This document shows, one piece after another, positions 6,157-60,399 of a stretch of DNA of 64,000 nucleotides (positions are counted from its first letter, which is position 1; each line of letters opens with the position of its first letter). A program made the translations under genes and the position numbers. Source of the stretch: an uncultured Candidatus Saccharibacteria bacterium (lineage in GTDB: Bacteria > Patescibacteriota > Saccharimonadia > UBA4664 > CAZOQX01); the NCBI GenBank assembly GCA_964582465.1, contig CAZOQX010000001.1:89214-153213 (forward strand), in the 5' to 3' direction. The notes beneath the pieces were generated by a model. That model saw nothing but the letters and a program-made list of their open reading frames with translations, did not search any database and was not told the DNA's origin.

Positions 6157-6231
6157 CGCGGGGTGGAGCAGTAGTAGCTCGTCGGGCTCATAACCCGGAG
6201 GTCGGTGGTGCAATTCCACCCCCCGCTACCA
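6157..6231 (+). tRNA. Initiator tRNA-fMet (anticodon CAU)
   Basis: Anticodon loop CTCATAA. Three consecutive G-C pairs at the base of the anticodon stem (TCGGG/CCCGG). 1:72 mismatch (C:U) in the acceptor stem CGCGGGG/CCCCGCT. Encoded CCA. Confidence 0.85.
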
Positions 6232-6306
6232 AGAATTCTGGCTTAGTCTGCGAGAGTCCGCTATCATGCGGGCTCAATTTTTTCCAATAGCTCTACTTTA
6301 GGGGAG

Positions 6307-6342
6307 CGAATTGTAAACCAAGCGATAGCTGTTTACAATTCG
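6307..6342. repeat. Perfect 12-bp inverted repeat (CGAATTGTAAAC ... GTTTACAATTCG) with a 12-nt loop, between two tRNA genes
   Basis: Read directly from the sequence. Possible tRNA-processing or terminator-like hairpin. Confidence 0.6.
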
Positions 6343-6352
6343 GAAGAGGCGA

Positions 6353-6427
<75 letters not shown>

Positions 6428-20684: not shown

Positions 20685-22834
20685 TAGTTCGCCCCCGTTC
20701 TGGTTGAAGATAAGGTGCGGGTGGCAGAAGCAGATCTGGTGGTGGCGGAGGTGTGGTTAATAGCAGAAGGTCTAATCGTGCTCGATGTGATGCCCGAGGT
20801 GTTCGATAGCGTGCCGTGATAGGCCAAGACTGGTGTGCGGGTACCGGTGACGGTGATGTCAGTAATGGAATTGTAGCTAGAGCTCCAGGTGCCGGAAGTG
20901 CCAAGAGCGACGGTGGCGGCCGAGCCACCGGTGACAGCATTGACGGTAATGGGATTGGCGGGGGTGCCCAGTGTAACTATCGAGCCTGTGATCGTTTTGG
21001 TTTGACCAGACTTAAACTGCAGCGTCTTAGGACCACCCTGGATAAAGATATTGGCAATTGTTGGTGAGCTATCGAAGAATATGACCGCACCGGTACCACC
21101 GCCGGCAATATATATATTGCCATAGATTGCAGTACCCAGGCTAAGGGTTTTCGACGTGGCCGAAACATCCGACACATAAATGCTAGCTAAGGCTGCACTA
21201 ACCGTAATACCAGAAGTAGCTACATTCCAGATTGTGCCATTACCGGTAATCATCCATTTGCCCGTGCCCATATTGAGAGTGCGGGTGTCAGTGGTAGTTG
21301 AAGTGAAACTCCCGCACCTCACATTAAACCCATTAGCATCGAAGGTGCCGTTACTTAAAGTTATCCCGCCCGACGCGCCAGTATCAATCGAGTAGTTATC
21401 CTGAAGGGTATAACTGCCGCCTGGCGCCAGGAAATTCCAAGCTTCGGGGAAACGCTTACCGCCCGATGTGATAGTCTGGGCGCCGCGACCCCGAAAGTTG
21501 CTGGAAAAGTTGCCGCTAATGCTGAAATTATTGGTCGCTATCAGGTTACCGAAGATATTGGCACCAATCGTAAAGCTAATGGTGCCAGTAAAGCCCGTGA
21601 AATTGATATCCTTCCCCCAACGCGGCATGTCAGCTGTGATGGTACCGGACGCGCTACCGTTGATGATCACATTATCTTGAGGTAATGGCACGCGGCTAGT
21701 CCAGTTACCGGCTGTCGACCAGCTGCCACCGGCGCCAGAACGTGTTTGCGTAGCCGGTGTATCGAATGTGATGTTGGAATTGCCTTGACCATCTCCCAGC
21801 GAGGTTCCGGTCCAGGCGGCATTCCCGGGCAACCCCGCCCCGGTAGTATCTATAAAATCGAGGTTTGTCAGCGAAATGGCGGCGGCGGTAAGCGTACGAC
21901 TAGTCCCAACGGTGCTAGATTGAACCAATAGACGGTTGGTAGTGGAATTACCAGCCAGGGTCAGGGTATTGGTGACGGTCAGGTTGGATAGTATGTTCAA
22001 AACTTCGGTTTTGGCTGCGATTGAAGACGTAAAAGTGAAGTTAGCACAGGTGGTTGTGCCAGCATTGGTAGAACCAAGCGACATGGTTTGAACCACCGTA
22101 GGGGCATATACAATGTTATTATAAGTCGCCACACCACCGGCAAATGCACCGGTGCTGCCGGTTAAAGTGATGGTTGAGCCGCCCGCATTCAGAGTAAGAC
22201 CAGTAGTAGTGGCTGTAGTCCAGGACGTGCCTGTACCAGTAATCGTTATGTTCGAGTTGCCAAGCGTTAAACTTCTAGTGTTTGAGTTATTGGAGTTAAA
22301 TAGTCCCCACGAGCAGGTTTGCCCATTGGTATCGAGAGTACCTTGGTTGTGCGTAACTGTCCCGCCAGTGCCCATATTGAGTGCTCCCGTCAGCTGGTAA
22401 TTACCGGTTGTATTACCGGACCCAAAAGTGACAATGTTGGACATAGTTTTTCCCTTACAATCAACCGCCTGCTGAGTGGCTGAGGTTGATCTAAGTAAGA
22501 GTTGGGCTGACTTATTCGTGCCCAGTGTATACGTCATACCGGTGGAGAATTTAAATGCGACGTTTCCGGCCCCGGCTGTGCCATCTCCAACATTAAGAAG
22601 AGTTGAGTCATTATGGGTTAGGATTCCACCGTAGTCGCCTGTGCCAGCAGTGCAGTCGACCGAGCGGCAGACGGAGTTAACGTCAATCGTGACGTTCCCA
22701 CTGCCCGTTTCGAAAATGACATCATCAGCTGCCGTCGGTGGCCCAGAGGAATCGCCGCCTGCAGATGAGACATTGCTCCAAGTACCGGCTGCACTCCAGT
22801 TACCACCAACCGCTTTGGCGTAGAGAGTGGCCAT
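20684..22834 (-). CDS. Giant paralogous beta-helix-like protein (716 aa), paralog 3
   Basis: N-terminus MATLYAKAVGGNWSAAGTWS... C-terminal tail ...TRTGAN. Stop/start overlaps. Confidence 0.8.
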   Translation of the reverse strand: MATLYAKAVGGNWSAAGTWSNVSSAGGDSSGPPTAADDVIFETGSGNVTIDVNSVCRSVDCTAGTGDYGGILTHNDSTLLNVGDGTAGAGNVAFKFSTGMTYTLGTNKSAQLLLRSTSATQQAVDCKGKTMSNIVTFGSGNTTGNYQLTGALNMGTGGTVTHNQGTLDTNGQTCSWGLFNSNNSNTRSLTLGNSNITITGTGTSWTTATTTGLTLNAGGSTITLTGSTGAFAGGVATYNNIVYAPTVVQTMSLGSTNAGTTTCANFTFTSSIAAKTEVLNILSNLTVTNTLTLAGNSTTNRLLVQSSTVGTSRTLTAAAISLTNLDFIDTTGAGLPGNAAWTGTSLGDGQGNSNITFDTPATQTRSGAGGSWSTAGNWTSRVPLPQDNVIINGSASGTITADMPRWGKDINFTGFTGTISFTIGANIFGNLIATNNFSISGNFSSNFRGRGAQTITSGGKRFPEAWNFLAPGGSYTLQDNYSIDTGASGGITLSNGTFDANGFNVRCGSFTSTTTDTRTLNMGTGKWMITGNGTIWNVATSGITVSAALASIYVSDVSATSKTLSLGTAIYGNIYIAGGGTGAVIFFDSSPTIANIFIQGGPKTLQFKSGQTKTITGSIVTLGTPANPITVNAVTGGSAATVALGTSGTWSSSYNSITDITVTGTRTPVLAYHGTLSNTSGITSSTIRPSAINHTSATTRSASATRTLSSTRTGAN

Positions 22835-25800
22835 CAGCTGGCCCCCGTTCTAGTTGAGGATAAAGTGCGGGGGGCTGAAAGAGATCGGGTAGAAGCAGAA
22901 CTATGTGGAGTGGCAGAGGGTCGTTTGGTAGTAAAGTCAAAGCCGGTGTTGCCGGAAACATTAGTACCGTGATAAGCGAGGACGGGGGTACGGGTACCGG
23001 TCACAGTGATGTCTTGAATTGAGTTATATGAGGATACCCAGGTACCGGAGGTGCCGAGGGCGATGGTGGCGGGGGTACCCGAAACTGTCGAGTAAATATG
23101 GGTGCGTTGTGAATCCAGCCCCCAACGATTAGCCAGATAATATTCTATTGAACTTAAGTTTGGTATGGTTAAGGCCTGGTTGTAGATTAAAACCTCAAAA
23201 ATATCGCCTACAAAAAATTCAGAATCGTTATTTCTGGCCCCAATTCTGCCAGAGGTAAAGGTAGCGGTGTTATTGACCATTGCGACTGGGTTTGTTACTT
23301 GAGCCCCATCTTTTCTTGAGAAGCCAGAGTCTGCTGCCCAGTAAGAAGTAAAAATATGGGGGTCAGTGTCCAGAGGAGTATAGCGATCGGTACGAGTTAC
23401 TCCGTCATCCCCAGCCCGTGTTTGACCAAATTGCGTCCCATTGGTGATTGCAAACAGATATATATTTGATACACCTCCTAATCCAATAATATCTTTGTTG
23501 CTCGCTGTATTTGTTGCCCTTGCCACTACAAACACAACACAAGGAACATCATTGCCAGCCATCGCAGCCACTAAACCTGCGGGCATAACCATATCATCAT
23601 TCACCCCATCAAAGCGCATTGAGGCCATCCCATTCATAACATTAGTCGTGTAGGTTGGTCTGGCTGTGCCAGATTGGGTAACATCAAAGCCATTACCCGA
23701 TTGATCTTGCCAGGTTGATACGGGGTCACCATTTGACCCTGAGTATTGATCGGCTTTAAGCCATAGTTTGCATCCTGCAATTGAGGTTGGAACTATGATT
23801 GCAGGGTTGGTTGAGCCCGGGCCAATGGTTGTGATCGATTGATTAACCGTCGTAACCTGCGATACAGGAAAGATCAAAGTCTTTTGTCCTTGTCCACTGA
23901 CAATAATCTTATTGAACGTGTTCGCCCCGGTAAAAGACAGTGCTTGGGGAGTATCTTGGGCATATCTCAGGATATTGTAGCTCCAGCCACCGCCCGCAAA
24001 GGTCTTATCTACTATGCCCTGACCCGTCAGGCTGATGGTAGAGGTTCCCGAATTAAGTGAAACCATTGTTGTCGCAGCAGTCCAGACCGTACCTGTACTG
24101 TTCACTGTCCATATACCCGCCCCCATGGTGATGGCTGTCTGTCCCTGAAAAGTAATAGTCGTCGCTTTAACGTTATGATTGTTGGCTGAGAAAGTTGTCC
24201 CGACGGCAATCACTAAATTACGGTTTATCCCCATGTCAAAATCATCTTGGAGGGTATAGTTGCCGCCTGGAGCTGCAATTGTGGTAGTGGCTGTCCCTGC
24301 CATCGCGTGACCCGCCATCGTTATGGTATAAGTTCCTCTGCCTTGGAGTTGAAGATTTATTCCCGTCCCAAAGGCGGTTCCAACACCAGCCCCCAAGGTA
24401 AGACTTCCATATAAGATAGGGGCACCAGTCAGGCTTAGGGTTGGAGAGCCCGTTGCCCCGCTAAAATCAAGACTCTTGCCCAATCGAGGCATATCCATGG
24501 TCACGCTTCGCCCCGCCACAAAAGCATTATTTACAACTACGTTATCTTGAGGGAGCGGGACTCTAGTTGTCCAGCCATGAGTGCTCCAGGTGAAAGAGGC
24601 CGTCCCGGTGGCAGTTTGCGTAGCGGCAGGAGTAAAGGTCATCCCCCCATTGCCGCCAGCATCTCCCGACTTGCCTGTTATGGCCGAGAGATCAACTGGG
24701 GTGGTGGCCGTTCCTCCAACTACCCAAGTGGAGGCCGAGGAGTTTTGTTCAAACATCATCCCATCCACATAGAAGGTGGCGGCAACAGCGGCGTTGGTTG
24801 ATACGCCAAGCATTATGGCATTGCCTAGTGTTGGCGAAGGATTATGGCCTGACGTGAAGGAGACGGATAATCTATCCCATGTTCCTAAACCAGTTGCCGT
24901 ACCAGTTCCGGTGTAAACCGTTCCGTTATTACAGAAGTCACAAACAGCCACTCTGAGTGGGGTTCCGGCTGCTGCCTGAACGTAGGCTGAGAAGGTATAG
25001 GCGGTGTCAGACTGAGCATCGACTAGACCTTGGGCTTTGCCCATCACGTATTCCCACATCCCCTGCAAGCTCACACTTCCTGAAGTTGTCAGCTTCATAC
25101 AGTAAGTCCCTTGCCAAGGAGTAACTTCGGTACTTACCGCCCCGGTTAAGGCGATGTTAGAGGTTGAGTTATTAGAATTGAAGCTCCAGCTGCCGATAGA
25201 AAGAGTCTCAAAAGAGGAGTCGGCTACTCTCATGATGTTGCCTCCTGCCGTATAAGCCGAGTTTTTAAACATTAGAATGTCGGCAAAATCGACGTTGGAA
25301 GTAGTCAAGGTAGTACCGTAAGCAAGATATCGCATTGTCCCCACAGTGTTGCTTTGCACAATCAGGCGATTAGTAACGGAGTTGCCAGCCAGCGTCAGCG
25401 TACCGCTCACGTATATACCAGAGCCACCCAGCGCGACTGACCCCGTTAGAGTCGCTGGCCCATTGACGGTTAGATTCGCCAAGATAAACGATGCGGTACC
25501 CGCCAACGTTATAGCCGAGCCATTGAGCGTAAATGATGCGCCGTTCATATTGAGGGCATTGGAAACATTAAAACCACCAGCGGAAAGTGTCCACGTTGAT
25601 GTGTTTGCCGAGACTGTCAGTAAAGTAGCATTAACCAAAAACGCGGAATTGGACGAGGAGGTGAGGGTTATGGCACTAGCTCCGAGAGTAAGTACTGCCG
25701 TAGTAGAGAGGCTATGAGCGAAAGTGTTCCACGAACAGGTTTGCCCGTTGGTATCTAAAGTTCCAGCGCTCAAAGTAAGGTTTCGACATGTCACACCGGA

Positions 25801-26238
25801 TGAGAATTGCCAACTGGCACCAGCGCCATTAAATGTAACATCAGTTGATGCCCCTAAATTTTTAGCCACGAAATCAACGATCTGTTGGGTCGTAGAGGTA
25901 GATATAAAACTGATAGTAAGAGCCCCCACTGCCGTATAGGTCATACCTGCCGAGAACTTTAGGGCTACGTTCCCTGCGCCAGCCGTTGCATCCCCAATGC
26001 TCAAGACAAAGGCGTTATGGGTCAACGTTCCACCGTAGTTACCAGTTCCCGAAGTACAATCTAAAGAACGGCAGGCGGAAGTAGCATCGATCGTGACGTT
26101 GCCGCTTCCCAATTCAAAGATCACATTATCTGAGGCGGTTGGCGGCCCCGCACTGTCTGCCCCCCCAGATCCTGTTGCGGACCACGTACCCGCCGCAGAC
26201 CAGTTACCACCCGCGGCTTTGGCATAAAGTGTAGCCAT
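22834..26238 (-). CDS. Giant paralogous beta-helix-like protein (1134 aa) with CBM4/9-like and LamG-like lectin inserts, paralog 2
   Basis: CBM-like segment (...ATFYVDGMMFEQNSSASTWVVGG). LamG-like jelly-roll segment (LWLKADQYSGSNGDPVSTWQDQSGNGFDVTQ...RFDGVNDDM...). Conserved N- and C-terminal modules. Confidence 0.8.
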   Translation of the reverse strand: MATLYAKAAGGNWSAAGTWSATGSGGADSAGPPTASDNVIFELGSGNVTIDATSACRSLDCTSGTGNYGGTLTHNAFVLSIGDATAGAGNVALKFSAGMTYTAVGALTISFISTSTTQQIVDFVAKNLGASTDVTFNGAGASWQFSSGVTCRNLTLSAGTLDTNGQTCSWNTFAHSLSTTAVLTLGASAITLTSSSNSAFLVNATLLTVSANTSTWTLSAGGFNVSNALNMNGASFTLNGSAITLAGTASFILANLTVNGPATLTGSVALGGSGIYVSGTLTLAGNSVTNRLIVQSNTVGTMRYLAYGTTLTTSNVDFADILMFKNSAYTAGGNIMRVADSSFETLSIGSWSFNSNNSTSNIALTGAVSTEVTPWQGTYCMKLTTSGSVSLQGMWEYVMGKAQGLVDAQSDTAYTFSAYVQAAAGTPLRVAVCDFCNNGTVYTGTGTATGLGTWDRLSVSFTSGHNPSPTLGNAIMLGVSTNAAVAATFYVDGMMFEQNSSASTWVVGGTATTPVDLSAITGKSGDAGGNGGMTFTPAATQTATGTASFTWSTHGWTTRVPLPQDNVVVNNAFVAGRSVTMDMPRLGKSLDFSGATGSPTLSLTGAPILYGSLTLGAGVGTAFGTGINLQLQGRGTYTITMAGHAMAGTATTTIAAPGGNYTLQDDFDMGINRNLVIAVGTTFSANNHNVKATTITFQGQTAITMGAGIWTVNSTGTVWTAATTMVSLNSGTSTISLTGQGIVDKTFAGGGWSYNILRYAQDTPQALSFTGANTFNKIIVSGQGQKTLIFPVSQVTTVNQSITTIGPGSTNPAIIVPTSIAGCKLWLKADQYSGSNGDPVSTWQDQSGNGFDVTQSGTARPTYTTNVMNGMASMRFDGVNDDMVMPAGLVAAMAGNDVPCVVFVVARATNTASNKDIIGLGGVSNIYLFAITNGTQFGQTRAGDDGVTRTDRYTPLDTDPHIFTSYWAADSGFSRKDGAQVTNPVAMVNNTATFTSGRIGARNNDSEFFVGDIFEVLIYNQALTIPNLSSIEYYLANRWGLDSQRTHIYSTVSGTPATIALGTSGTWVSSYNSIQDITVTGTRTPVLAYHGTNVSGNTGFDFTTKRPSATPHSSASTRSLSAPRTLSSTRTGAS

Positions 26239-29000
26239 TAGCTAGCTCCTGTTCTAGTTGAGGCTACCGTGCGGGTAACGGCCGTAGACCTTGTTGTGGC
26301 TGGGGTGTGTGGTATAGCGGATGGCCGGACGGTACTTGATGTAATACCAGTGGCGTTAGAAAGAGTGCCGTGGTAGGCCAACACGGGGATGCGAGTACCG
26401 GTGACAGTACAATCGGTAATGGAGTTGAAAGCCGAGGACCAAGTGCCAGAAGTGCCGAGACCGACAGTGTATCCCTGTCCGGGAGTGCTCGAATTGAAGG
26501 TAATAGCCTTTGTTGAAGTCCCTAAACTTATGATGTTTGATACGTTAGTAGTGCTTCCTGCGAATGTAGTAACAGTTGTTCCTGCTGGGATATAGATATT
26601 GTGAAAATTTCTACCGGGTGCACCCGTAGAAGTTCCAAAATTGATAACACCAGTTCCTCCAGCAAATCTCAAGTCGTATAAGGTAAATGCTCCCAAGACA
26701 AGAGTCTTCTGAGTAGAGGTCGTGTTGGCAATGATGATTTCTGACGTTGATGGGTTAACCGTAAGATTAGTAACCCCAGAAACGGTAAAAACAGTTCCCG
26801 TTGCCGTTAGTATCAGCTTACCCGATCCCATATTAAAGACTGTTCCTGCTACTGTAGGGGATGAGGAGAAGCCACCACAAGTAAAGTTATGGTTGTTCAT
26901 ACTAAAAGTTCCTGAGTTAAATCCAGAAGCAGAGGCAGAGTTTGAGACAAAGTCATCCTGAAGGGTATACGAACCTGCTAGGGCGTTTATTGACAGTACA
27001 CCCGTCCAAGTTACCCCACTTGAAGTGATTGTGTGCGCACCACGGCCTCTTAATATCTGGCTTTGGCCACCCGAAAAAGTCATGCCCGATCTTAAGGTGA
27101 TACTCCCATAATAAGAGGGGCCGCCCGATACAACAGCGGCGCTTGACAAGGTAAACGCCACAGTTGACCCCGAGCAATCAACATTGGCGCCAATATGGTT
27201 CATTTCGATTGTGACAGTTTTACTGGCCGTTCCCATATTGATAAAGACGTTATCTTGAGGCAGCGGAATACGAGAAGTCCACGAAGTTACAGCTGACCAG
27301 TTGGCGCTGGTTTTATTTATAGATACGGTAGCGGCATTGGCTGAGGATTCAGTAAACGAGAGGGCGTCTACAGATTGAGCCGTAAAGTCAGCATTAAAAA
27401 CGGGTGTCCCCGCCCCTGATCCTAAGGCTGAGCCATAGATTTTAGCATTGTAAACATTCCCTTTCAAAAGAGCATTCGTGCCGGCTGTATTAGAGCCAAC
27501 CTCCAAAATGCTAGTAGTATCTGCGATAGTAGCTACCCCCACCGTTGTAATTGTCGTCCCAAGCTGAGTCCATGTAGAGCCGTCATCTGACATATAAAAA
27601 TTACAGACTCTGTGTCCAGCACCGTCGTTTAACGTTAGCGAGCCTCGTAACCATTTAGTGGAGCCATCTGCCAGGCCAGTCGCGACACTTGATATATTAT
27701 TTAGAAAGTTAGTCCCATCGGCTGATGTTCTCATTTGGAGTGTCCCCGCAACCAGAACTTCCAAGCCATAAGCGAACTGACCAGAAACTGCTACCTTAGC
27801 AACGGTCTCGTTATTTGCTGCCGGTGTCCAGTCGTCCAGTGATACTTTGACGTCTATTGTAATATCAGTTGTTATCGATAGAGCTGCTGAGTCGGGAGCC
27901 GAAACATAACCACCCGACACACCATTTAACCTCAAGCTTGTACCCGTTAGTTGGGCTTGCCCATAGTATTGGGTAACTGGCGAAGGGAAAGTGATGCCGG
28001 AATTTCCTAGGCAATCTCCGAGCAAAGTTCCGGTTAAACTGCCCGCAGAACCAGTGATGATAATATCCATAAAATCAACATACTGGTGGGCACCGTGTGA
28101 GCCATTGACGGTAATGGTTGTAGTTTGGCCAGCAGTACCAGAAAAAACAAGAACTCGGTTTATGGCAGAGTTGCCACTTAATGTAAACGTGCCCGTGACG
28201 GTAATTGCCCCTGTAATTTGAAGACCAAACCCTTTATTGACCGGGCCAGTGTAGGTGAAATTTGTGATGGTTGGGCCAGATGAGACGGTTTGGGTGGCAT
28301 TGGCTAATCCGAAAGAGACAGTGCCATAAGTCATACCCGCCCCGCCCGAAAAGACATTGGAGCCATTTCCGTTTAAGTTAATGGTTGAAGAGGCGGCAGA
28401 CAGCGTAAGGTTTCCTACATTTGTCATCGACCAACTGCCTGAGCTGTTGTTTAGCAAAATCGTGGAAGTTCCGACAGTGATTGACCTGACGTCAGTTGTG
28501 GTTGACGTGAAGGACTTTAAGGTCATATTGAAGTTGGCGGTGTTGAAGGTTCCTTTGTTGACGTTAAAGGTCGTCGAAGAGATGAAGGCATCCTGGAGGG
28601 TAACCGTTCCGCCATTGGTTGACCCTGTAAAACCGATGGCGATAGGACAAGACCAGGTTTTTGTAGCCGTAGTTAAGGCACAGGTTCCGCCCGATGCTGC
28701 AATAGTAATAGTACCTGCATAGGTCATCGTCCCCATCGTGGAAGCCAAAGTTAAATCACCCCGTACTGTTAGATTGAAGGTCCCCGCGAATATGCCGGTA
28801 TAACCGGTGCCACCAGCAAAGGTGAGACTGGCACAGTCGGCGGCCTGGTTGACGGTTACGGTGCCGCCACCGGAAGAGCTATCAAAAGTTACAGGGTCAG
28901 TCGAAACTGGCACCGAAAAACCGCTAGAACCACCAGACGAATCCGACCAGTGAGCCGTATCGCTCCAGTTACCGGTACCGCCAACCCAAAAGCGCGCCAT
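26238..29000 (-). CDS. Giant paralogous beta-helix-like protein (920 aa) with LamG-like insert, paralog 1
   Basis: N-terminus MARFWVGGTGNWSDTAHWSDSSGGSSGFSVPVSTDPVTF. LamG-like segment LRLNGVSGGYVSAPDSAALSITTDITIDVKVSLDDWT. C-terminal TRTGAS tail. Confidence 0.8.
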   Translation of the reverse strand: MARFWVGGTGNWSDTAHWSDSSGGSSGFSVPVSTDPVTFDSSSGGGTVTVNQAADCASLTFAGGTGYTGIFAGTFNLTVRGDLTLASTMGTMTYAGTITIAASGGTCALTTATKTWSCPIAIGFTGSTNGGTVTLQDAFISSTTFNVNKGTFNTANFNMTLKSFTSTTTDVRSITVGTSTILLNNSSGSWSMTNVGNLTLSAASSTINLNGNGSNVFSGGAGMTYGTVSFGLANATQTVSSGPTITNFTYTGPVNKGFGLQITGAITVTGTFTLSGNSAINRVLVFSGTAGQTTTITVNGSHGAHQYVDFMDIIITGSAGSLTGTLLGDCLGNSGITFPSPVTQYYGQAQLTGTSLRLNGVSGGYVSAPDSAALSITTDITIDVKVSLDDWTPAANNETVAKVAVSGQFAYGLEVLVAGTLQMRTSADGTNFLNNISSVATGLADGSTKWLRGSLTLNDGAGHRVCNFYMSDDGSTWTQLGTTITTVGVATIADTTSILEVGSNTAGTNALLKGNVYNAKIYGSALGSGAGTPVFNADFTAQSVDALSFTESSANAATVSINKTSANWSAVTSWTSRIPLPQDNVFINMGTASKTVTIEMNHIGANVDCSGSTVAFTLSSAAVVSGGPSYYGSITLRSGMTFSGGQSQILRGRGAHTITSSGVTWTGVLSINALAGSYTLQDDFVSNSASASGFNSGTFSMNNHNFTCGGFSSSPTVAGTVFNMGSGKLILTATGTVFTVSGVTNLTVNPSTSEIIIANTTSTQKTLVLGAFTLYDLRFAGGTGVINFGTSTGAPGRNFHNIYIPAGTTVTTFAGSTTNVSNIISLGTSTKAITFNSSTPGQGYTVGLGTSGTWSSAFNSITDCTVTGTRIPVLAYHGTLSNATGITSSTVRPSAIPHTPATTRSTAVTRTVASTRTGAS

Positions 29001-36753: not shown

Positions 36754-37829
36754 TGCCCAAAGATTACTATCAAATTCTAGGCGTCGCGAAAACGGCGTCG
36801 GCGGAAGAGATTAAAAAGGCTTACCGCAAGCTCGCGCTGGAACACCATCCCGATCGTGGCAACGGCGACGACAAAAGATTCAAAGAGATTAACGAAGCCT
36901 ACGAAGTGCTAAAGGACCCGCAAAAACGGGCGCAGTATGATCAATTTGGCTCAGTCGGCCCGAATCCGTTTGGCGGCGGTACTCAAGGCTTTGGCGGCCA
37001 GGGATTTGATTTTGATTTTTCGCAATTCGGTGGTTTCGGCGACATTTTTGACATGTTTACCGGGGGCGCCGGGCAGCGCACCAGAGCGCCACGGGGCCGC
37101 GATATTGAAGTTGCACTCACGCTCGACTTTAAAGAGGCTGTCTTTGGCGCCGACAAGCGCCTTGATTTAACTCTGGAAGATCAATGCGATCGTTGCCATG
37201 GCGCGGGCGCAGAACCCGGCACTAAACTCAAAGAATGCCCGACTTGCAAGGGCAGTGGGCAAGTGACCAAAATCCAAAATACCATTTTGGGCAGTCTGCG
37301 CCAGACGGCGGGGTGCAGTACTTGCCGCGGTCGTGGCCAGGTGCCTGAGCAGCCGTGCACGCAGTGTCAGGGCAAGGGTACGCTGCGCCAATCCAAGACT
37401 GTGAGTATTAAGATCCCGGCCGGCGTGGACCACGGTACGGTCGTGCGTCTCGGCGGTCAGGGTGAGGCCGTGAGTGGTGGGCCGCACGGTGATTTGTATG
37501 TGCACATCGAAGTGAAGCCGCATCGGCAGTTTAAGCGTGAGGGGGGAAATATCTTGAGCGAGACGGCAGTTTCTATGCCAGAGGCGGCGCTTGGCGTAGA
37601 AATTAAAGTGCCAACACTTGAGCGCGAAGTCACACTCAAAGTTCCAGCCGGCACCCAGAGCGGGCAGGTTTTTAAACTCGCCGGCTACGGCGTGCCCACG
37701 GGTAACCGCCGTGGTGATCAATTAGTAAAAGTTCGTGTCGAGACGCCTACCAAGCTTTCGCCGGAGCAAAAAGAATTATTACAAAAACTGGCCGCAACCA
37801 CCGACCGCAAGCATTTTTGGCAAAAGTAG
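36753..37829 (+). CDS. dnaJ: Chaperone DnaJ
   Basis: J domain with HPD (DYYQILGV...HHPDR). G/F region. Four CxxCxGxG zinc-finger repeats. Confidence 0.95.
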
Positions 37830-37845
37830 CTGGTACAATCAAAGC

Positions 37846-38334
37846 ATGGAAGGACACGGAGAAGAACCACAGGATTCAACTGAGCATCCTGATTTAGCCG
37901 ATATTCGCCACGAGTATGGCTACATGGAAGAGGAGCTGGAGGCTTCGGCAAGGGAGACTAAGTTAGCTGCTGCGGCTGAAATAGTCGAGTCGCTTAAGGA
38001 TCTGCCCGAAGAGCTTGGTTTTGCTGAGGGACCGAGTTTGGACGCTCTTAGAGCAAGGGTTGTGGAGATAGGTCGGGTAGGCGGGGAAGTGGCCAAACTA
38101 GCCGAAGCCTATCGCATTCAGGCTGAGATTGAAGTGGGCAAGCTAGTCGGTGATGCTTACCTGCGGGCTCAAATTGGTTTTGCCGTCAGGATGGCACTAA
38201 TTTGGCAAGCGGCCGGGGAATTGGACCTCTTTGCCGAAGACTTAAGTGATGCCTATTTTTATGCTTATAACGCTAGGCTCGATGAGGTGGCCGTGCTGTT
38301 AGAGCAGGCCATTCAGCTTTATAACGAGGCCTAA
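37846..38334 (+). CDS. Acidic hypothetical protein (162 aa)
   Basis: ATG at 37846 after the dnaJ stop. The upstream ORF-track start overlaps dnaJ and is unlikely. Highly acidic, helical. Confidence 0.45.
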   Translation: MEGHGEEPQDSTEHPDLADIRHEYGYMEEELEASARETKLAAAAEIVESLKDLPEELGFAEGPSLDALRARVVEIGRVGGEVAKLAEAYRIQAEIEVGKLVGDAYLRAQIGFAVRMALIWQAAGELDLFAEDLSDAYFYAYNARLDEVAVLLEQAIQLYNEA

Positions 38335-38405
38335 AGTTTGCAAAAATCAGATCACAAGTGTAACTTTTAAGCACGAACATTGAAATGTGATCAAGGGGGC
38401 TTGCA

Positions 38406-38440
38406 GGGCCAAACGAGTATCGTTCGGCCCGGTTTTCGTT
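38406..38440 (+). terminator. Intrinsic terminator
   Basis: GGGCCAAACGA-GTA-TCGTTCGGCCC stem (one mismatch), followed by GGTTTTCGTTT. Confidence 0.6.
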
Positions 38441-38471
38441 TGGCTTTGCAAGCGCTTGACTGGAGGCTACC

Positions 38472-38645
38472 GTGGCACTAAGTAGCACTTTGTATGTACG
38501 GCTGCCAGACGATCTGTACAACAGACTCAAGTCCCACTGCGACAAGGATGATCGGTCTCTGGCCAGCGCCACACGCAGGGCCGTGAGGGAGTATCTCGAC
38601 CGACATGAGGAGAGGGAGGAACGACGAGATGGCCAAGCGGTATGA
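38472..38645 (+). CDS. Ribbon-helix-helix (CopG/ParD-like) antitoxin-like small protein (57 aa); not in the ORF track
   Basis: GGAGG RBS, 5-nt spacer, GTG start. Translation VALSSTLYVRLPDDLYNRLKSHCDKDDRSLASATRRAVREYLDRHEEREERRDGQAV. High-GC. Overlaps the next gene by 17 nt. Confidence 0.6.
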   Translation: MALSSTLYVRLPDDLYNRLKSHCDKDDRSLASATRRAVREYLDRHEEREERRDGQAV

Positions 38646-38880
38646 CGAAGAGATCGCCGTGGAGGTCGCCACCACCGGGGGTATCCCTGCTTCGTTCAAA
38701 TGGCGGGGGCGGACCTACCAAGTGGTCGATGTAATCGGCCGCTGGCGGATCGAAGGCAGGTGGTGGGATGATGGTCGCGATCGCGAGTACTGGCGGGTGG
38801 AAGCCCGCGGCGGGGCGGTCTGGGATCTCTACCTCGACCGTACCACCAATGTTTGGACGCTCGAGCGGCTCTGGGACTAG
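38629..38880 (+). CDS. Hypothetical Trp/Arg-rich protein (83 aa), second gene of the high-GC cassette
   Basis: ATG inside the 3' end of the RHH gene. MAKRYDEEIAVEVATTGGIPASFKWRGRTYQVVDVIGRWRIEGRWWDD... No known toxin fold recognised. Confidence 0.5.
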   Translation: MAKRYDEEIAVEVATTGGIPASFKWRGRTYQVVDVIGRWRIEGRWWDDGRDREYWRVEARGGAVWDLYLDRTTNVWTLERLWD

Positions 38881-38890
38881 GGAGGTTCGA

Positions 38891-39649
38891 ATGGAACGCT
38901 ACTACATCGACGTACCCAGTTTCGTCTTCCACGGCTGGTCGCGCTGGCAGCCCGATTGGAAGCACTGGGCGGCCGGCTTCAACGTCCGCATGGGAGCCGA
39001 CATCGATGTCTTCGCCGGTGCCGCGGTACAAGAAGAGTCCGAGCGGGGCTTCCACTTCAGCGACTCCATTTCTCACCGCGTGCGCTTCCTGGATGTGCCG
39101 TGGAAACATCACGGTGAGTCGGCGCCGGTGACTTACCTCGATCACCAGATCTGGCTCACGCTGGACAGCCTCATTCGTGAGCACGGTTTGGACGAGGCCA
39201 TCCGGGTCTACCTCGCCAGCGGCGAGGGACAGCTTCCTGAGCTGGTCGGCGCCCCATCGCGCTGGGGCGGGCGGACGCTCCGCGTACCGGTGGATTTCAT
39301 CAGGATCTCCCGGATCGTTTCGTCGTGGCAGCACAGGTACGAATCCGTCGTCGCCACCATCGAGGTCGGCCACCATTTGGTGCTCTGGGAGGTCGAGGTC
39401 ATGCCCGCGGGTCAGCGGCCGACTCCCAAACCTGGTCTGGCGCCGGACGGACCAATCCGCGGTGGTCTACGCGACCTGATCGAGCGGCTCTACCTCAAGG
39501 ATCCGGCGGCCGTCCAGGCTATCGCCGAGCGGCACGAGTACGGCGGCAGAGACCCACGAGATCGCACGTTCACATACGCAGCTCCCGGGGTCGATCCCAA
39601 GAGCACGCCGCCGGCGCTCGAGTTCCTCCAGCCGGTCGCGGCGGGATAG
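38891..39649 (+). CDS. Hypothetical protein (252 aa), third gene of the high-GC cassette
   Basis: GGAGG RBS 5 nt before the ATG, 10 nt after the previous stop. High-GC codon usage. No recognisable domain. Confidence 0.55.
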   Translation: MERYYIDVPSFVFHGWSRWQPDWKHWAAGFNVRMGADIDVFAGAAVQEESERGFHFSDSISHRVRFLDVPWKHHGESAPVTYLDHQIWLTLDSLIREHGLDEAIRVYLASGEGQLPELVGAPSRWGGRTLRVPVDFIRISRIVSSWQHRYESVVATIEVGHHLVLWEVEVMPAGQRPTPKPGLAPDGPIRGGLRDLIERLYLKDPAAVQAIAERHEYGGRDPRDRTFTYAAPGVDPKSTPPALEFLQPVAAG

Positions 39650-39760
39650 GCGCTGGACATGTTCTACCGGGGTGGGTGGCTTTACGCTGCCCGCCCCGGA
39701 TTCGTTATTATCGACTTCAAGACGCAAGGGTTGTAAAATAATGGTATAAGCATTAGCACA

Positions 39761-40252
39761 ATGGTAATCGACCCCAGCATCATCATAATCGGTTTAATCT
39801 GCCTCATCGCCACCTACGGACTGCTGCTCGGTCCGGAGAGAGTGCGGACACTGGCGATCAGCGCCTACGTCGGGATTGTAATGGCCAGTGAGCTTTCGAG
39901 TTTTGTAATCAAGGCTCTCAGCGAACGCGTGCACGGCTCGGCTCAAATTTATCTCAAACTGGGCTTGCTTGTTCTGCCAATTATTCTGCTGGAGCTTGGT
40001 CATCATATTAAGGGGCACCATCGCACCCATTTTAAGCACGGCTTGATTGCAACGTTAGCGCTTTCGGTCCTAACCGCGCTACTACTGGTATCGAGCGGGA
40101 TGAAATTACTGCCGCCCAAGCAGTTGCACGCCGCGCTCGATAGCTCATTTCTGACGATTTGGATTTATAATTGGCGGCTGCTCTGGATCGGCTTGGTGCC
40201 GCTGGCTGTAATTGCAGAAGCTTTCATTCGACCTAAAGAGTCACATCACTAA
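39761..40252 (+). CDS. Hypothetical integral membrane protein (163 aa)
   Basis: 4-5 TM helices. Native-like GC. Confidence 0.5.
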   Translation: MVIDPSIIIIGLICLIATYGLLLGPERVRTLAISAYVGIVMASELSSFVIKALSERVHGSAQIYLKLGLLVLPIILLELGHHIKGHHRTHFKHGLIATLALSVLTALLLVSSGMKLLPPKQLHAALDSSFLTIWIYNWRLLWIGLVPLAVIAEAFIRPKESHH

Positions 40253-40283
40253 GCTACACGGCAAATCGCTTAAAACAAAAACA

Positions 40284-40307
40284 GGGCCGCTTGGGCCCCA
40301 TTTTTTG
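40284..40307. terminator. Bidirectional intrinsic terminator between convergent genes
   Basis: GGGCC-GCTTG-GGCCC hairpin flanked by an A-run upstream and TTTTTTG downstream. Confidence 0.5.
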
Positions 40308-40316
40308 CTTCCGAAT

Positions 40317-40652
40317 TTACATACCAGGCATGGGCAGGAATTCGAGCACCTCAATCGAGGCGCCAGGGCGCTTCAAGTGAGGGTGGCTCTTCACCGCTTC
40401 CTCGACGTCACCCTTGTCACCCTCGAGTATGGAATAGCCTGATACGGCCGAGGAGCTCGTGCCGGCACCCTCAGGAGTGATGTGGCTGACACCTTGGAGC
40501 GGCATGCCAAAGTCGACCTTGACCGACTTCTCGGTCTCAGTCTTCCACTGCATCCATTCATCCATGCTCGCCTTCATTTCGGCTTCACTCGCCTGAGCCA
40601 TGAGGTCGCTAGCTGAGGCATCAGAGTTATACAAAACCATGTATTTTGCCAC
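40317..40652 (-). CDS. Hypothetical small alpha+beta protein (111 aa; YciI/Dabb-like fold is a guess)
   Basis: ORF with plausible size and composition. No firm motif. Confidence 0.45.
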   Translation of the reverse strand: MAKYMVLYNSDASASDLMAQASEAEMKASMDEWMQWKTETEKSVKVDFGMPLQGVSHITPEGAGTSSSAVSGYSILEGDKGDVEEAVKSHPHLKRPGASIEVLEFLPMPGM

Positions 40653-40693
40653 TTTTGCATCCTTTGTTATTAATTAATGATAACATTTCCTAA

Positions 40694-41035
40694 TCAGGAA
40701 TTGATAGCCTTAACTCGGCTAAGGACTATCTTTCGAATGAGCATTTCTGGCAGTGGCCGCTCTAGCGTGAATTGGATGGTGCCTTTGGATAGCTGGTAAT
40801 CTACCAGCTGGTCTTTAAACATTTCAACTGGCTGCGAAGTCGGGAAGAGGCTCAGGTGGTCGCGGAAGGCGGCATAGCCCAGTAAATACTTGCCCCGGTA
40901 TTTGAACCCTGGCATGCCATAGCTAATCACTTCCTCAGTTTCTGGAGCAGTTTTTTTGACGATGGAGCGAATTCGCTCCAGTTCGGCTTTTTTTACGGGA
41001 TCAATTTTACTCAAATAATCGTCGATGGCTGACAT
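40694..41035 (-). CDS. DUF1801 (YdhG-like) domain protein
   Basis: 113 aa with the YGMPGFKYRGKYLLGYAAFRDH core typical of DUF1801. Confidence 0.55.
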   Translation of the reverse strand: MSAIDDYLSKIDPVKKAELERIRSIVKKTAPETEEVISYGMPGFKYRGKYLLGYAAFRDHLSLFPTSQPVEMFKDQLVDYQLSKGTIQFTLERPLPEMLIRKIVLSRVKAINS

Positions 41036-41080
41036 AGTTTAACGGTATAGTAAGATTGTAACTATTTTCAAGGAGGTTTT

Positions 41081-41413
41081 ATGGCAGAGAGTATAAAAAT
41101 ACTGGTGTATCCAGCTAAGGACTTAAATGCAAGCAAGACATTCTTTAATACGTTTTTAGGCACCGAGCCCTACGCCGATGCGCCTTATTACGTTGGCTAT
41201 AAGACGGATGGGCTAGAGGTTGGCTTGGACCCGAATGGTGAGGCGGTGATTGCCTATATTGAAGTGGAAGACATCAAAGCAAGTCTGCAAACTTACCTGA
41301 GTGCGGGTGCTAGCCTGCACCAAGATGTCAAAGACGTTGGCGGCGGCCTGCTAATTGCTCAGGTTAAAGATGCCAACGGTAATGTTCTTGGCCTAAGACA
41401 ACAGCCTAAGTAA
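41081..41413 (+). CDS. Glyoxalase/bleomycin-resistance (VOC) family protein
   Basis: 110 aa. Beta-alpha-beta-beta-beta module pattern. GGAGG RBS. Confidence 0.6.
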   Translation: MAESIKILVYPAKDLNASKTFFNTFLGTEPYADAPYYVGYKTDGLEVGLDPNGEAVIAYIEVEDIKASLQTYLSAGASLHQDVKDVGGGLLIAQVKDANGNVLGLRQQPK

Positions 41414-41414
41414 T

Positions 41415-41490
41415 CTGGAGGGCCATCCGGGATTCGAACCCGGGACACGAGGCTTAAAAGGCCCCTGCTCTGCCAACTGAGCTAATGGCC
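41415..41490 (-). tRNA. tRNA-Lys (anticodon UUU)
   Basis: Reverse complement folds as GGGCCAT-TA-GCTC-AGTTGGCA-GAGC-A-GGGGC-CTTTTAA-GCCTC-GTGTC-CCGGG-TTCGAAT-CCCGG-ATGGCCC-T-CCA. Confidence 0.85.
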
Positions 41491-41624
41491 CGCGAAGGGC
41501 ACTCCATATCCTATTATATATTGCTAAAGGCTTCAATGCTGGTATTAAACTGCTTGTGCTTGGACATAGGCAAGACTATTATGAAAGCACAAGCACCTTG
41601 TTGGAAGAATCAGGAGGCGCGGAG

Positions 41625-41972
41625 ATGGCCGAAACGGTCCAATTCGAACAGCCGTGCCCGGGTTGCTCTGGCACGTTGATCCTGGGAGCGGGTAGCGAGA
41701 TCTACCTGTTTCGCGATGGTCCCCAGTTCAACTACATCTTCTCGCCTCCCTGCGACGACTGCAGCCGGCGCGTCATGGTCTTCGGGGCGGCTGACTGGAT
41801 CGTTCAGCTGATGGGAGTGGGCATCGAGCCCAAGTGGGAGGACACCGCGGGGCGCTGGGTCCAGGCCGAATGCTTCGAGGCCACCTTCGCTGCCCAGCTC
41901 AGCCAGGTCGAGCTCAGCCCGCTCCTGTTGGAGCATCAGTACTGGGGAGGATCACCGAGCGTCGTTACCTGA
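41625..41972 (+). CDS. Hypothetical CxxC...CxxC zinc-ribbon-like small protein (115 aa) in a high-GC island
   Basis: AGGAGG and GGAG RBS before the ATG. CPGC and CDDC pairs. GC-rich codons. Confidence 0.5.
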   Translation: MAETVQFEQPCPGCSGTLILGAGSEIYLFRDGPQFNYIFSPPCDDCSRRVMVFGAADWIVQLMGVGIEPKWEDTAGRWVQAECFEATFAAQLSQVELSPLLLEHQYWGGSPSVVT

Positions 41973-42186
41973 TCAACAGGGTTGCTAGCGTCACCGCGAC
42001 AAGTGGTGGCGCTTCGCCCCGAGTCTTGAAGGAAACTTAAAGATTTAGGGCGAAAGGATTAAATAATCCGCCTTTTATAGTTAGTTTCGGTCGGGATGCC
42101 GTAGATATCGTGCGCAAGTGTTTCTATACTTGGCCAGTACAGTTCCCGAGTCTCACCCTAGCGGGTGGGAGAAAGGAGGCGGACGC

Positions 42187-42573
42187 ATGGGCGACCGCAA
42201 CGCGCAGGGACTCGAGCAGCTCATCCGGCACCCGAAGGTGCTGCAGTGGGCGCGCGACGAGGTGGGAGTCGACTCGCTGTTCATCGAGCCGAGGACCTTC
42301 GGTCAGCCCACCGGGGCGACCACCAAGGGCAGCTCGAGCGGCACGGTCTCCGATCCGGAGACGTCCTACATGCTGAAGGGCGGGATGGGTGGCCAGGAGA
42401 TCTGCATCGGGGGCATCCTCGACCTGGTCACGGCCGTCTCCAGCTTCCGGGACGCGATCGGGTACACCGGGCAGATCGGCCAGCTGACCTACCAGCAGCT
42501 GCTGCAGCAGGTCGAGGTGGCCCAGGAGGAGGGGGCCAGATCGACCTCCGGCGCCCACTCCACTCGCCGCTAG
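42187..42573 (+). CDS. Hypothetical protein (128 aa) in a high-GC island
   Basis: AGGAGG RBS 7 nt before the ATG. GC-rich. No recognised family. Confidence 0.45.
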   Translation: MGDRNAQGLEQLIRHPKVLQWARDEVGVDSLFIEPRTFGQPTGATTKGSSSGTVSDPETSYMLKGGMGGQEICIGGILDLVTAVSSFRDAIGYTGQIGQLTYQQLLQQVEVAQEEGARSTSGAHSTRR

Positions 42574-42594
42574 CTCTGCGCACAACTCGGGACA

Positions 42595-42723: not shown

Positions 42724-42842
42724 TTTTGAATTGTTAATTGACATCTCCGGCTTGGGAGCCTTGCTGCCTACTTGTTAGGCGGCAGCGCTCCCAGGCTGGA
42801 ACCATTCTGGTGACAGCCGCGTACAGAAAGGAGGTCTCCGCT

Positions 42843-43019
42843 GTGAGGCCGATCTTCTTCGCGATCCCGACCATGGGGCCGCCGGGCGACCACGCCCACA
42901 CGGCGCCCAAGAGCGCGAGCTTCCAGAAGATGATGCACATCGACGTCGACGTGGCCGGCCGCGACCGCGGATCCGGGATCGAGATCGCCGGCGGCGCCGG
43001 GGCCCTCGAGACGGGCTGA
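42843..43019 (+). CDS. Small peptide gene (58 aa), high-GC
   Basis: AAGGAGG RBS, 8-nt spacer, GTG start. (V)RPIFFAIPTMGPPGDHAHTAPKSASFQKMMHIDVDVAGRDRGSGIEIAGGAGALETG. Alternative internal ATG (MGPPGD...). Confidence 0.4.
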   Translation: MRPIFFAIPTMGPPGDHAHTAPKSASFQKMMHIDVDVAGRDRGSGIEIAGGAGALETG

Positions 43020-43252
43020 CCTCATCGTGAGGTCGCTCTCGGGTGCGAGCCCGAGGGACCCCGGCAACGCGTCCACCGCTGTGCGCAATCGACGCGCGCA
43101 GCCTGACAGGAAGGAGAGGTCGAGCCAATGCGGTTCCACTTCCTCATAGGCTAGGCGACTAGGGCGCCGGCCGGGAGAAAACCGGCTAAGGCGCTATAGC
43201 AGCTCCTTTCCATGCAGGGCGTCATCACCCTCCCAGCAGGAGGACCTGTGCG

Positions 43253-59029: not shown

Positions 59030-59081
59030 GTTCTTATTTTAGCGTAAGCGTTTTGATTAAGCTAATGGACTAAAAAGGCTG

Positions 59082-59115
59082 AGGGCCGCCAACTCGGGTG
59101 AGTTGGCGGCCCTCA
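59082..59115 (-). terminator. Intrinsic terminator for the dnaN-like gene (perfect 15-bp stem)
   Basis: GAGGGCCGCCAACTC-GGGT-GAGTTGGCGGCCCTC. On the minus strand it is followed by AGCCTTTTTAG. Confidence 0.65.
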
Positions 59116-59131: not shown

Positions 59132-60238
59132 CTAGCCCACCGGAGCTGGTATGCGGACGGGCATCACGATGTAGGTGAAGTCCGCGCTTTCGCCGCGAAT
59201 GACGCCCGGCTTCAGGCCGTCGCGAACCTGAATGGTCGCCTCATCATCACCAACTGCCAGTAGGCCGTCGGCGAAGTAGCCAGGGTTGAAGGCCACCGTC
59301 ATGTCCTCGCCTTCGTAGGTACCCTCGATGGCCTCGATGGCGTTGCCGAGGTCGGGCGAAGAGGAGGTCAGGCGGACGCCGAGAGCGTTGAATTCGAACC
59401 GCAGCGGGGTGTTCTCACGGGCCAGGATGCCGACTCGGTGCACGGCCGCGAGCAGGTCTCGCCGGTTGACCCTGAGCTGGTTCTCGTAGTGGTCGGGGAG
59501 CAGCTGCCGGTAGTTCGGGAACTGTCCCTCGATCAGGCGGGTGGACATGGTGAAGTCTCCACCCTCGAACCAGGTTTGGCTCGAGCCGAAGTACAGCTTG
59601 ATGTTACTCTTCGCGTCCAGGTCACCCGCCACCCGGCTCATCTCGCCGATGGCGCGGTTGGGAATGATGCAGGAGCTGTTGCTGGCGCCATCGATCGGGA
59701 GCATTCGTACGGCCAGTCGGTAGCTGTCGGTCGCGGCGAAAGCGAGCTCGCTGCCGCTCAGTTCCAGCAGGACGCCAGTCAGGGTTGGCCGGGCTTCGTC
59801 CCTGCTGGCGGCACGGGCTACCTGGGAGACGGCCAGACTGAAGTCGGCGGCCGGTACGGTGAGGATGATCCCGTCTGGTCTCTGCCAGCTCGGGAAGTCC
59901 TCGGACGGCAGCAGCCGTACCACGCCTTCGTAGGCCTGGCACAGGATGCTCGCTTGGCCTCCGTCGGCGGTGAAGGTCACCACCGCCTGGGGCAGTAATT
60001 TGACGATCTCACCGAGCAGCCTGGCCGGGATCAGCGCGACGCCGGCTTCTTCGACCTGTACGGCCAGGTTCAGCCGTGTGCTCACCTCGAGATCGGTGGT
60101 GGTCAGGACCAGCCCTCCGTCCTCGGTCGCTTCGATGTAGACGCCGGTCAGAGCTGGGATGCCGGGGCGATTGGACACGCCCCGTTGCACCGCAGCCAGA
60201 GCCTCGGCCAAGTCGTCGCGGTCTGCGCGGAACTTCAT
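59132..60238 (-). CDS. dnaN: DNA polymerase III beta subunit (sliding clamp) paralog of actinobacterial type, in a high-GC island
   Basis: MKFRADRDDLAEALAAVQRGVSNRPGIPALTGVYIEA...TDSYRLAVRMLP...EGQFPNYRQLLP...MTVAFNPGYFADGL...YIVMPVRIP closely parallel Mycobacterium-type DnaN. AAGGAGG RBS before M13. About 64 % GC. Confidence 0.85.
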   Translation of the reverse strand: MKFRADRDDLAEALAAVQRGVSNRPGIPALTGVYIEATEDGGLVLTTTDLEVSTRLNLAVQVEEAGVALIPARLLGEIVKLLPQAVVTFTADGGQASILCQAYEGVVRLLPSEDFPSWQRPDGIILTVPAADFSLAVSQVARAASRDEARPTLTGVLLELSGSELAFAATDSYRLAVRMLPIDGASNSSCIIPNRAIGEMSRVAGDLDAKSNIKLYFGSSQTWFEGGDFTMSTRLIEGQFPNYRQLLPDHYENQLRVNRRDLLAAVHRVGILARENTPLRFEFNALGVRLTSSSPDLGNAIEAIEGTYEGEDMTVAFNPGYFADGLLAVGDDEATIQVRDGLKPGVIRGESADFTYIVMPVRIPAPVG

Positions 60239-60399
60239 GCTGGGCGCCTCCTTCTGGAGTTGTGGGGTACGCACCTCTTAATAACCAACCGTACAATTTC
60301 TATGAGTTACTCGCAAGCATAAGTGTTGAGGTTGGCGTTAATATTCGTCGGAGTGTATAAATGTAAAACGAAGGTGTGAACCTACACAAGTGAGGAGTT

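Follow-up and report, generated by a model that had tools for sequence, protein, structure and literature searches.

An orphaned stand-alone ImuB-C gene in a small, probably horizontally acquired island of a Candidatus Saccharibacteria chromosome

We analysed a stretch of 64 000 nt (hereafter the window) from contig CAZOQX010000001.1 of an uncultured Candidatus Saccharibacteria bacterium and, within it, a GC-rich block of three tightly packed genes at 38.4-39.7 kb that encode proteins of 57, 83 and 252 aa. The 83-aa protein is a stand-alone ImuB-C domain of actinobacterial type; ImuB-C is the C-terminal module of ImuB in the ImuA-ImuB-DnaE2 SOS mutasome (PMC3765255, PMC6511836, PMC12926913). 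In our reading the block is probably a small horizontally acquired island set in the core chromosome, 3′ of hrcA-grpE-dnaK-dnaJ, which carries an orphaned ImuB-C gene and is not a toxin–antitoxin (TA) system. An initial annotation, made from the letters of the sequence, had proposed a novel TA or defence-like cassette acquired from a high-GC donor, with a ribbon-helix-helix (RHH) regulator followed by two partner genes. We are fairly confident of the present statement of identity and origin.

The 83-aa protein matched the Pfam family PF20114 (DUF6504) over residues 2-82 with an E-value of 1.5e-14 and a score of 54.5 bits (cut-off 24.2). The protein collection that we searched contained 227 homologues; the best 120 of the 227 have identities of 53-100% (mostly 67-80%), and the sole organism named in the annotations of these 120 is ‘Actinomycetota bacterium’. 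An alignment of 33 members of the family is extremely conserved, and the window copy retains all 34 of its invariant residues, including the C-terminal ERLWD; W82 (in ERLWD), R4, R52, R56 and R80 are among them. The AlphaFold2 (AF2) model of the protein is all-beta, with six predicted strands (pLDDT 86).

Neither DUF6504 nor PF20114 was present in the literature searched; the family was identified as ImuB-C because of tblastn searches against annotated plasmids, in which matches to the 83-aa protein fell solely in mutagenesis cassettes with lexA, Y-family polymerase and DnaE2 genes. The plasmid of Deinococcus sp. QL22 carries, as overlapping genes, lexA, a Y-family polymerase, DUF6504 and the Pol III alpha subunit. 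In the Thermus brockianus cassette an S24 peptidase comes first, followed by an IMS protein of 443 aa, whose C-terminus gives the match, and then by dnaE. The match in Roseobacter litoralis lies within the C-terminus of a Y-family protein encoded ahead of an ‘error-prone DNA polymerase’; residues 412-484 of this Roseobacter ImuB scored above the cut-off against PF20114 (26.1 bits), and blastp aligned it to the 83-aa protein with 42% identity over 59 aa.

The ImuB-C domain was defined in 2013 by Aravind, Anand and Iyer, who found it at the C-terminus of ImuB and also as a stand-alone protein, described an all-beta structure in which a C-terminal Trp and basic residues are conserved, and proposed that it is a non-catalytic recruiter of translesion polymerases (PMC3765255). 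The 83-aa protein shows the same three traits: an all-beta fold in the model, a C-terminal Trp and basic residues. Timinskas and Venclovas described stand-alone variants as well and regarded ImuB-C as the foremost candidate for binding DnaE2 (PMC6511836); in a later model it is a beta-barrel with a novel fold that contacts the DnaE2 PHP domain (PMC12926913). What had been singled out as a Trp/Arg-rich candidate toxin is a member of a family that controls error-prone DNA synthesis. The initial annotation had recognised no toxin family in either partner; the family of the 252-aa protein is uncharacterised, and that of the 83-aa protein is recognisable.

The genomic setting of the relatives was examined in 91 DUF6504 loci, 11 of them obtained by look-up of exact proteins and 80 by a metagenome scan; their mean GC content is 0.71, and the relatives of 70-80% identity are chromosomal in these Actinomycetota. 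The typical layout is DUF402 on the minus strand followed, on the plus strand, by DUF6504, an optional small gene with metallo-beta-lactamase fold or a uracil-DNA glycosylase (UDG), the Pol III alpha subunit and a Y-family polymerase. Of the 56 loci with enough downstream sequence, 50 have a DnaE gene no more than 4.1 kb downstream in the same orientation; in eight of those 50 loci DnaE starts 10-44 nt after the DUF6504 stop codon. The best NCBIfam match of these DnaE proteins is ‘error-prone DNA polymerase’ with scores of 768-813 bits, below the cut-off of 939 (DnaE2-like in what follows); the gene that follows scores above the Pol IV cut-off.

An exact CGAAC-N4-GTTCG motif was present within 130 nt upstream of DUF6504 in all 76 non-identical loci, at a median distance of 33 nt; it is located 5-111 nt before the DUF6504 start (loci L002-L095) and its commonest form is CGAACATACGTTCG. 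In many loci a second such box stands ahead of the DnaE2-like gene. We take this motif to be the operator that LexA binds in Gram-positive and actinobacterial genomes. Given the LexA box and the linkage to polymerases, we conclude that in its home lineage the gene is part of the SOS regulon and moves together with mutagenic polymerases. In the actinobacterial DUF6504 clade the LexA box is thus found always, linkage to a DnaE2-like gene almost always and Pol IV often; the survey lends independent genomic support to the DnaE2-[ImuB-C]-PolY module proposed in 2026.

A relative of the window RHH gene or of the 252-aa gene was found beside DUF6504 in none of the 91 loci. One locus, L010 (7499-8160), from a complete 3.1-Mb Actinomycetota genome, carries an RHH_1 and PIN pair of VapBC type together with a UDG gene between DUF6504 and the DnaE2-like gene. 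This pair is an example of a genuine TA insertion at a locus of this type, and it is unrelated to the window RHH gene.

The window copy is locally parted from the SOS box and from both polymerases. No CGAAC-N4-GTTCG motif was found within 400 nt upstream of it, the best candidate having three mismatches, and no homologue of DnaE, of Y-family polymerases or of LexA was detected within the 64-kb window.

The composition of the block sets it apart from its surroundings. The GC content of positions 38451-39700 is 64.0%, against a window mean of 52.9% (standard deviation 3.0% for windows of 1250 nt; z = 3.8); 0.2% of the 1250-nt windows are equally GC-rich, and all of them belong to an island around dnaN at 59-60 kb. 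The GC content at third codon positions (GC3) is 0.77 in the 83-aa gene and 0.80 in the 252-aa gene, while in 41 host-like genes of the window it is 0.566 ± 0.042 with a maximum of 0.65. The two genes are foreign in composition. The shift reported by the initial annotation is therefore real and not illusory, with GC3 outliers to support it. The proposed high-GC donor fared well for the 83-aa and 252-aa genes, given their GC3 and the 70-80% identity of the 83-aa protein to Actinomycetota proteins, but not for the RHH gene, which is host-like (GC 0.57, GC3 0.60). As the RHH gene has no GC enrichment, foreign composition starts at about the 83-aa gene. At the DNA level the ImuB-C gene is 77-80% similar to Actinomycetota loci, and the similarity is limited to the coding sequence.

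The GC steps are sharp at both ends of the island. An independent Logan assembly of run SRR9179560 contains both junctions between island and host at 100% identity, contig L001 corresponding to window positions 36946-39572 and contig L101 to 39554-41463; the island therefore cannot be put down to a single assembler, with the caveat that both assemblies possibly come from the same reads. Contig L001, which runs from dnaJ through the 252-aa gene, ends on both sides in remnants of Illumina adapters (…GTGTGCTCTTCCGATC and AGATCGGAAGAGCGTCGTGTA) and therefore behaves as a single library fragment of 2.6 kb.

The features of the island, all on the plus strand, are as follows.

38395..38457 (+), long, imperfect palindrome at the island's left end, just 5′ of the RHH ribosome-binding site

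38472..38645 (+), RHH gene, GTG start, TGA stop at 38643-38645, 57 aa

38629..38880 (+), 83-aa gene (stand-alone ImuB-C, Pfam DUF6504), ATG start, TAG stop at 38878-38880

38891..39649 (+), 252-aa gene (uncharacterised family), ATG start at 38891, stop at 39647-39649

39667..39699 (+), intrinsic-terminator-like hairpin that closes the operon, 3′ of the 252-aa gene

The layout described by the initial annotation was borne out: three packed genes on the plus strand, the GTG start at 38472, the 17-nt overlap, the 10-nt gap and the GGAGG sites. For the 252-aa gene the gap and its GGAGG were placed correctly; the start had to be moved from 38893 to 38891. The RHH gene is preceded by GGAGG at 38461-38465, 6 nt before its start codon, and shares the last 17 nt of its 3′-end with the 83-aa gene. 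An alternative in-frame ATG of the 83-aa gene at 38605 would give a product of 91 aa; we preferred the start at 38629 because the N-terminus M-x-KRYDE is conserved in the alignment of 33 homologues. The 10-nt spacer between the ImuB-C stop and the start of the 252-aa gene holds GGAGG as the gene's own Shine-Dalgarno site.

The arms of the palindrome, 18 nt each (38399-38416 and 38436-38453), are 89% complementary; its 63 nt fold as RNA at −38.9 kcal/mol (z = −6.0; none of 200 shuffled sequences was as good), and the sequence occurs once in the window. We regard it as a candidate terminator for the 162-aa gene upstream, a candidate operator for the RHH protein, or both. The hairpin at the other end has a 14-bp stem with 11 GC pairs, followed by ATTCGTTATT, and folds at −31.2 kcal/mol (z = −4.5). 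A target-site duplication or recurring repeat was looked for at the island flanks and none was found.

The assignment of the 57-aa protein to the RHH fold held up, with Pfam matches above the cut-offs for RHH_5 (E-value 3.2e-6, 27.2 bits, cut-off 26) and RHH_1 (1.3e-4, 22.3 bits, cut-off 20.5); matches to Arc-like repressor families were observed among PHROGs. The NCBIfam model of a RelB-like antitoxin matched with an E-value of 9.5e-5 and 22.5 bits (cut-off 50). Since the RHH fold occupies residues 8-45, a tail of 12 residues is left for any other function; in size the protein is nearer to a repressor of CopG/Arc type than to a typical RHH antitoxin, which would carry an extension for binding its toxin. 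In a collection of 15 billion proteins its exact sequence does not occur, in keeping with the gene having been left uncalled. No close homologues were retrieved, and a search against plasmids gave no homologue.

The 252-aa protein proved to be a divergent (27-35% identity), compositionally foreign member of a rare uncharacterised family. A word-index search retrieved only the protein itself, the family profile likewise almost nothing, and a full HMMER scan of 1.84 billion representatives produced 33 matches with E-values of 1e-9 to 1e-4 and alignments over residues 3-245. Members of the family are ∼210-270 aa long, and their alignments, at 26-36% identity, extend in most cases over a large part of the protein; representatives of roughly 15 billion proteins yielded no relative more than about 35% identical, and plasmids gave no match. 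The family motifs RFLDxPxxH, PxxWxGxxLRIPVDFI, GHHLxxW and the C-terminal PPPIRFY are carried by the window protein, the last one in the degenerate form PPALEFL; W125, P133 and H162, invariant in the family, are retained. A profile of the family, whose alignment includes the window protein itself, scores the window open reading frame (ORF) at 1e-62. The conserved residues are limited to two His, one Trp and some Pro and Gly, so the family has no recognisable catalytic set; H73, H161/H162 and W125 are among the conserved positions. The model of the protein is confident (pLDDT 90), and no structural relatives of it were found in PDB or BFVD; by this prediction the fold is apparently new. A kinship of the 252-aa family to ImuB-C was ruled out by profile-profile comparison.

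Genomic context was examined for five relatives, three in genome assemblies and two on short Logan contigs; the narrower family alignment used for the locus search led to two genomes only. Two of the five come from genomes that carry the label Patescibacteria or Candidatus Portnoybacteria. Each of the five genes stands alone, with a composition matching that of its neighbours, in loci of 33-54% GC, and none has an RHH or ImuB-C partner beside it. The neighbours include ileS, RarA, UDG, DEAD-box helicase, GIY-YIG and CSD genes, a weak hint at a role related to nucleic acids. RarA, a UDG resembling family 4, GIY-YIG and a DEAD-box helicase were seen in the loci of Patescibacteria type (L009 7842-10021; L007 3041-3301; L008 3330-4556). 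Apparent N-terminal extensions of P0137 and P0145 were considered as fused domains and rejected; they look like miscalled starts.

The island is surrounded by core genes: upstream are lepA, an AlkD-like gene, hrcA, grpE, dnaK and dnaJ; downstream are a membrane protein gene, DUF1801, tRNA-Lys (41416-41491), ComEC, YebC, RuvC and RuvB. No integrase, transposase, phage or defence family was matched among the scanned window ORFs, mainly those above ∼110 aa, and the IMG/VR scans gave no relative of the ImuB-C or the 252-aa family. Neither PADLOC nor PHROG matches were observed for the 83-aa or the 252-aa protein.

A second GC-rich island, at 59132-60274 on the minus strand, is a complete DnaN sliding clamp gene with GC 0.65 and GC3 0.82. 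The best PDB matches of the product are 3rb9, 4tr7, 5ah2 and 6d47, which we take to be mycobacterial or actinobacterial clamps. The neighbours of the gene are type IV pilus and unknown genes rather than dnaA, recF or gyrB, and a perfect 16-bp hairpin lies 3′ of it (59080-59115). The presence of dnaN, as a second gene of actinobacterial type, with a role in replication, suggests that DNA was taken up more than once from donors of a similar kind.

Other GC-rich ORFs, all lacking Pfam matches, encode 138 aa (41556-41972), ∼150 aa (42118-42585, strand ambiguous), 123 aa (42768-43139, minus strand) and 450 aa (61620-62972, GC3 0.75). The first three are situated between tRNA-Lys and comEC, so that the whole region of 38.4-43.3 kb looks like a mosaic of foreign inserts. 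Elsewhere in the window, six consecutive head-to-tail ORFs of 703-1134 aa occupy 12974-29000 on the minus strand, and all three of those scanned have no Pfam domain. The large ORFs, ComEC, PilM, pilin-like genes and few metabolic genes resemble the gene content of Patescibacteria/Saccharibacteria, and the distribution of the 252-aa family likewise points to Patescibacteria. A tRNA-Ile gene with anticodon TAT, uncommon in bacteria, is located at 2706-2780, near two tRNA-Met(CAT) genes (6157-6427).

A type II TA system, in which the RHH protein would be the antitoxin and either the 83-aa or the 252-aa protein the toxin, or a tripartite system similar to omega-epsilon-zeta, with the RHH protein as regulator, the small protein as antitoxin and the 252-aa protein as toxin, is in our estimate very unlikely. 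It would account for the overlapping or closely spaced genes, for the weak match to the RelB-like antitoxin model and for the location in foreign DNA; moreover, gene order and sizes resemble those of omega-epsilon-zeta, in which an RHH regulator is followed by a protein of ∼85 aa and then by one of ∼250-290 aa. The antitoxin match, however, is less than half of its cut-off score, and the 57-aa RHH protein has the short tail noted above. The 83-aa protein is a conserved accessory of the SOS regulon, and the relatives of the 252-aa protein stand alone among housekeeping genes; the pairing is conserved neither in the 91 DUF6504 loci nor in the five loci of the 252-aa family. No toxin family of Pfam, NCBIfam or PHROG and no PADLOC system was matched by either partner, and the 252-aa protein shows no P-loop when its sequence is read directly, in addition to having no recognisable catalytic set. 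The novel TA or defence cassette of the initial annotation is therefore not supported, its 83-aa partner being ImuB-C with no RHH gene beside it in other loci. That annotation had itself named homology of a partner to housekeeping proteins as an argument against a cassette, and the 83-aa gene has such homology, to a repair protein; the genomic context which it suggested checking turned out to be core genes and not a defence island, with the Actinomycetota relatives located beside polymerases. Of the features of a TA or defence role that could be tested, none was clearly present.

It is also unlikely, though not negligibly so, that the block is debris of transfer, i.e. an ImuB-C fragment and an unrelated gene whose arrival next to an RHH gene of the host was accidental and which now drift unselected. 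The arrangement is a singleton, no known ImuB-C partner is encoded within 64 kb, and the several other GC-rich islands of the window point to frequent uptake; the host encodes ComEC. Yet all three ORFs are intact, and ImuB-C and the 252-aa protein keep the invariant residues of their families, the latter folding confidently in the model; strong Shine-Dalgarno sites, the gene overlap and a terminator are present, and a GC3 of 0.77, set against loci averaging 0.71 GC, fits recent arrival or partial amelioration rather than decay. Extremely improbable, in our judgement, is a chimera of assembly or binning in which Actinomycetota reads were joined to a contig of 53% GC. The sharp GC steps and the resemblance of the ImuB-C gene to abundant soil and sediment Actinomycetota would be expected of a chimera, but both junctions are base-identical in the Logan assembly (reads possibly shared), the island is just 1.3 kb long and its edges coincide with gene limits and hairpins, Actinomycetota offer no counterpart of the RHH or the 252-aa gene, and none of the sampled Actinomycetota loci exceeds 77-80% identity at the DNA level.

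Several observations weigh against the reading of the block as an acquired island with an orphaned ImuB-C gene and a new partner. A DnaE2 or Y-family polymerase may be encoded elsewhere in the genome, beyond the 64 kb. Since the RHH gene is host-like in composition, the three genes may differ in origin or function. The relatives of the 252-aa protein come from genomes of 33-54% GC and not from Actinomycetota, so that it may not have been transferred together with ImuB-C; the link between the two is adjacency in a single genome, no other locus pairing them. A promoter-like site was looked for upstream of the RHH gene and none was found.

One can speculate how such an operon would work. The RHH protein may bind the upstream palindrome and autoregulate the operon, replacing LexA control, while ImuB-C would act as a non-catalytic adaptor for a partner protein, as proposed for the family. 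In the donors that partner would be the PHP domain of DnaE2; here the 252-aa protein, translated next door, would be the likeliest new partner or client, and the 10-nt spacing between the two genes equals that between ImuB-C and the DnaE2-like gene in some Actinomycetota loci. Alternatively, ImuB-C may act on the host's own replicative polymerase, or the island may be neutral cargo. In a specific partnership of ImuB-C with the 252-aa protein we place much less confidence than in the identity and origin of the island. The fullest form of the idea has in our view a slim chance of being right: that ImuB-C was recruited from translesion polymerases into a polymerase-independent, RHH-controlled DNA-damage module with the 252-aa protein of novel fold. 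ImuB-C would then serve as adaptor or sensor of damage, and the 252-aa family, observed here otherwise only in metagenome-derived genomes, would be a new effector of repair or damage tolerance.

The acquired island with its orphaned ImuB-C gene indicates that ImuB-C can be transferred alone, come under a different regulator and be placed beside a protein with no solved structural relative. Because ImuB-C is thought to work by binding partners, the orphan copy is a natural experiment on what other partners it may bind. A related and likewise improbable possibility arises if the organism is an epibiont of Actinomycetota: the ImuB-C and sliding clamp of actinobacterial type in the window might then target replication and repair in the bacterium on which it lives. 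The 252-aa family, rare and with a confidently modelled, apparently new fold, is a reasonable target for structural genomics.

Among known systems, omega-epsilon-zeta is similar in gene order and sizes; it differs in that the window trio has no Zeta_toxin or P-loop match, its middle protein is all-beta and not helical like epsilon, and the trio is not conserved elsewhere. The CopG/Arc/Mnt repressors resemble the RHH protein in size, in the Pfam and PHROG matches and in the palindrome directly upstream; DNA binding and autoregulation are predicted functions. The operons lexA-imuB-C-polY of Geobacter sulfurreducens (PMC6511836) and lexA-polY-imuB-C-dnaE2 of the Deinococcus sp. QL22 plasmid share with the island a regulator, a coupled ImuB-C gene and a larger effector; in the window, however, the regulator is a 57-aa RHH protein and not LexA, and the putative effector is a 252-aa protein and not a polymerase. 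The actinobacterial DnaE2-[ImuB-C](-PolY-RecA) modules (PMC12926913; PMC3765255; PMC6511836) have the same ImuB-C family, with 70-80% identity, a length of ∼83 aa, the invariant residues and the all-beta fold in common, whereas the window copy has neither the LexA box nor the adjoining DnaE2-like and Pol IV genes and resides in DNA of 53% rather than ∼71% GC. ImuB-C tied to a non-polymerase partner, as here, is known from polymerase-independent operons with Ku/ligase, SplB, SRAP or a DUF955 peptidase (PMC3765255). The arrangement is unique among the loci examined: an RHH gene, ImuB-C and a novel-fold protein together outside Actinomycetota are new as a combination, while the joining of varied repair operons is a habit already known for ImuB-C.

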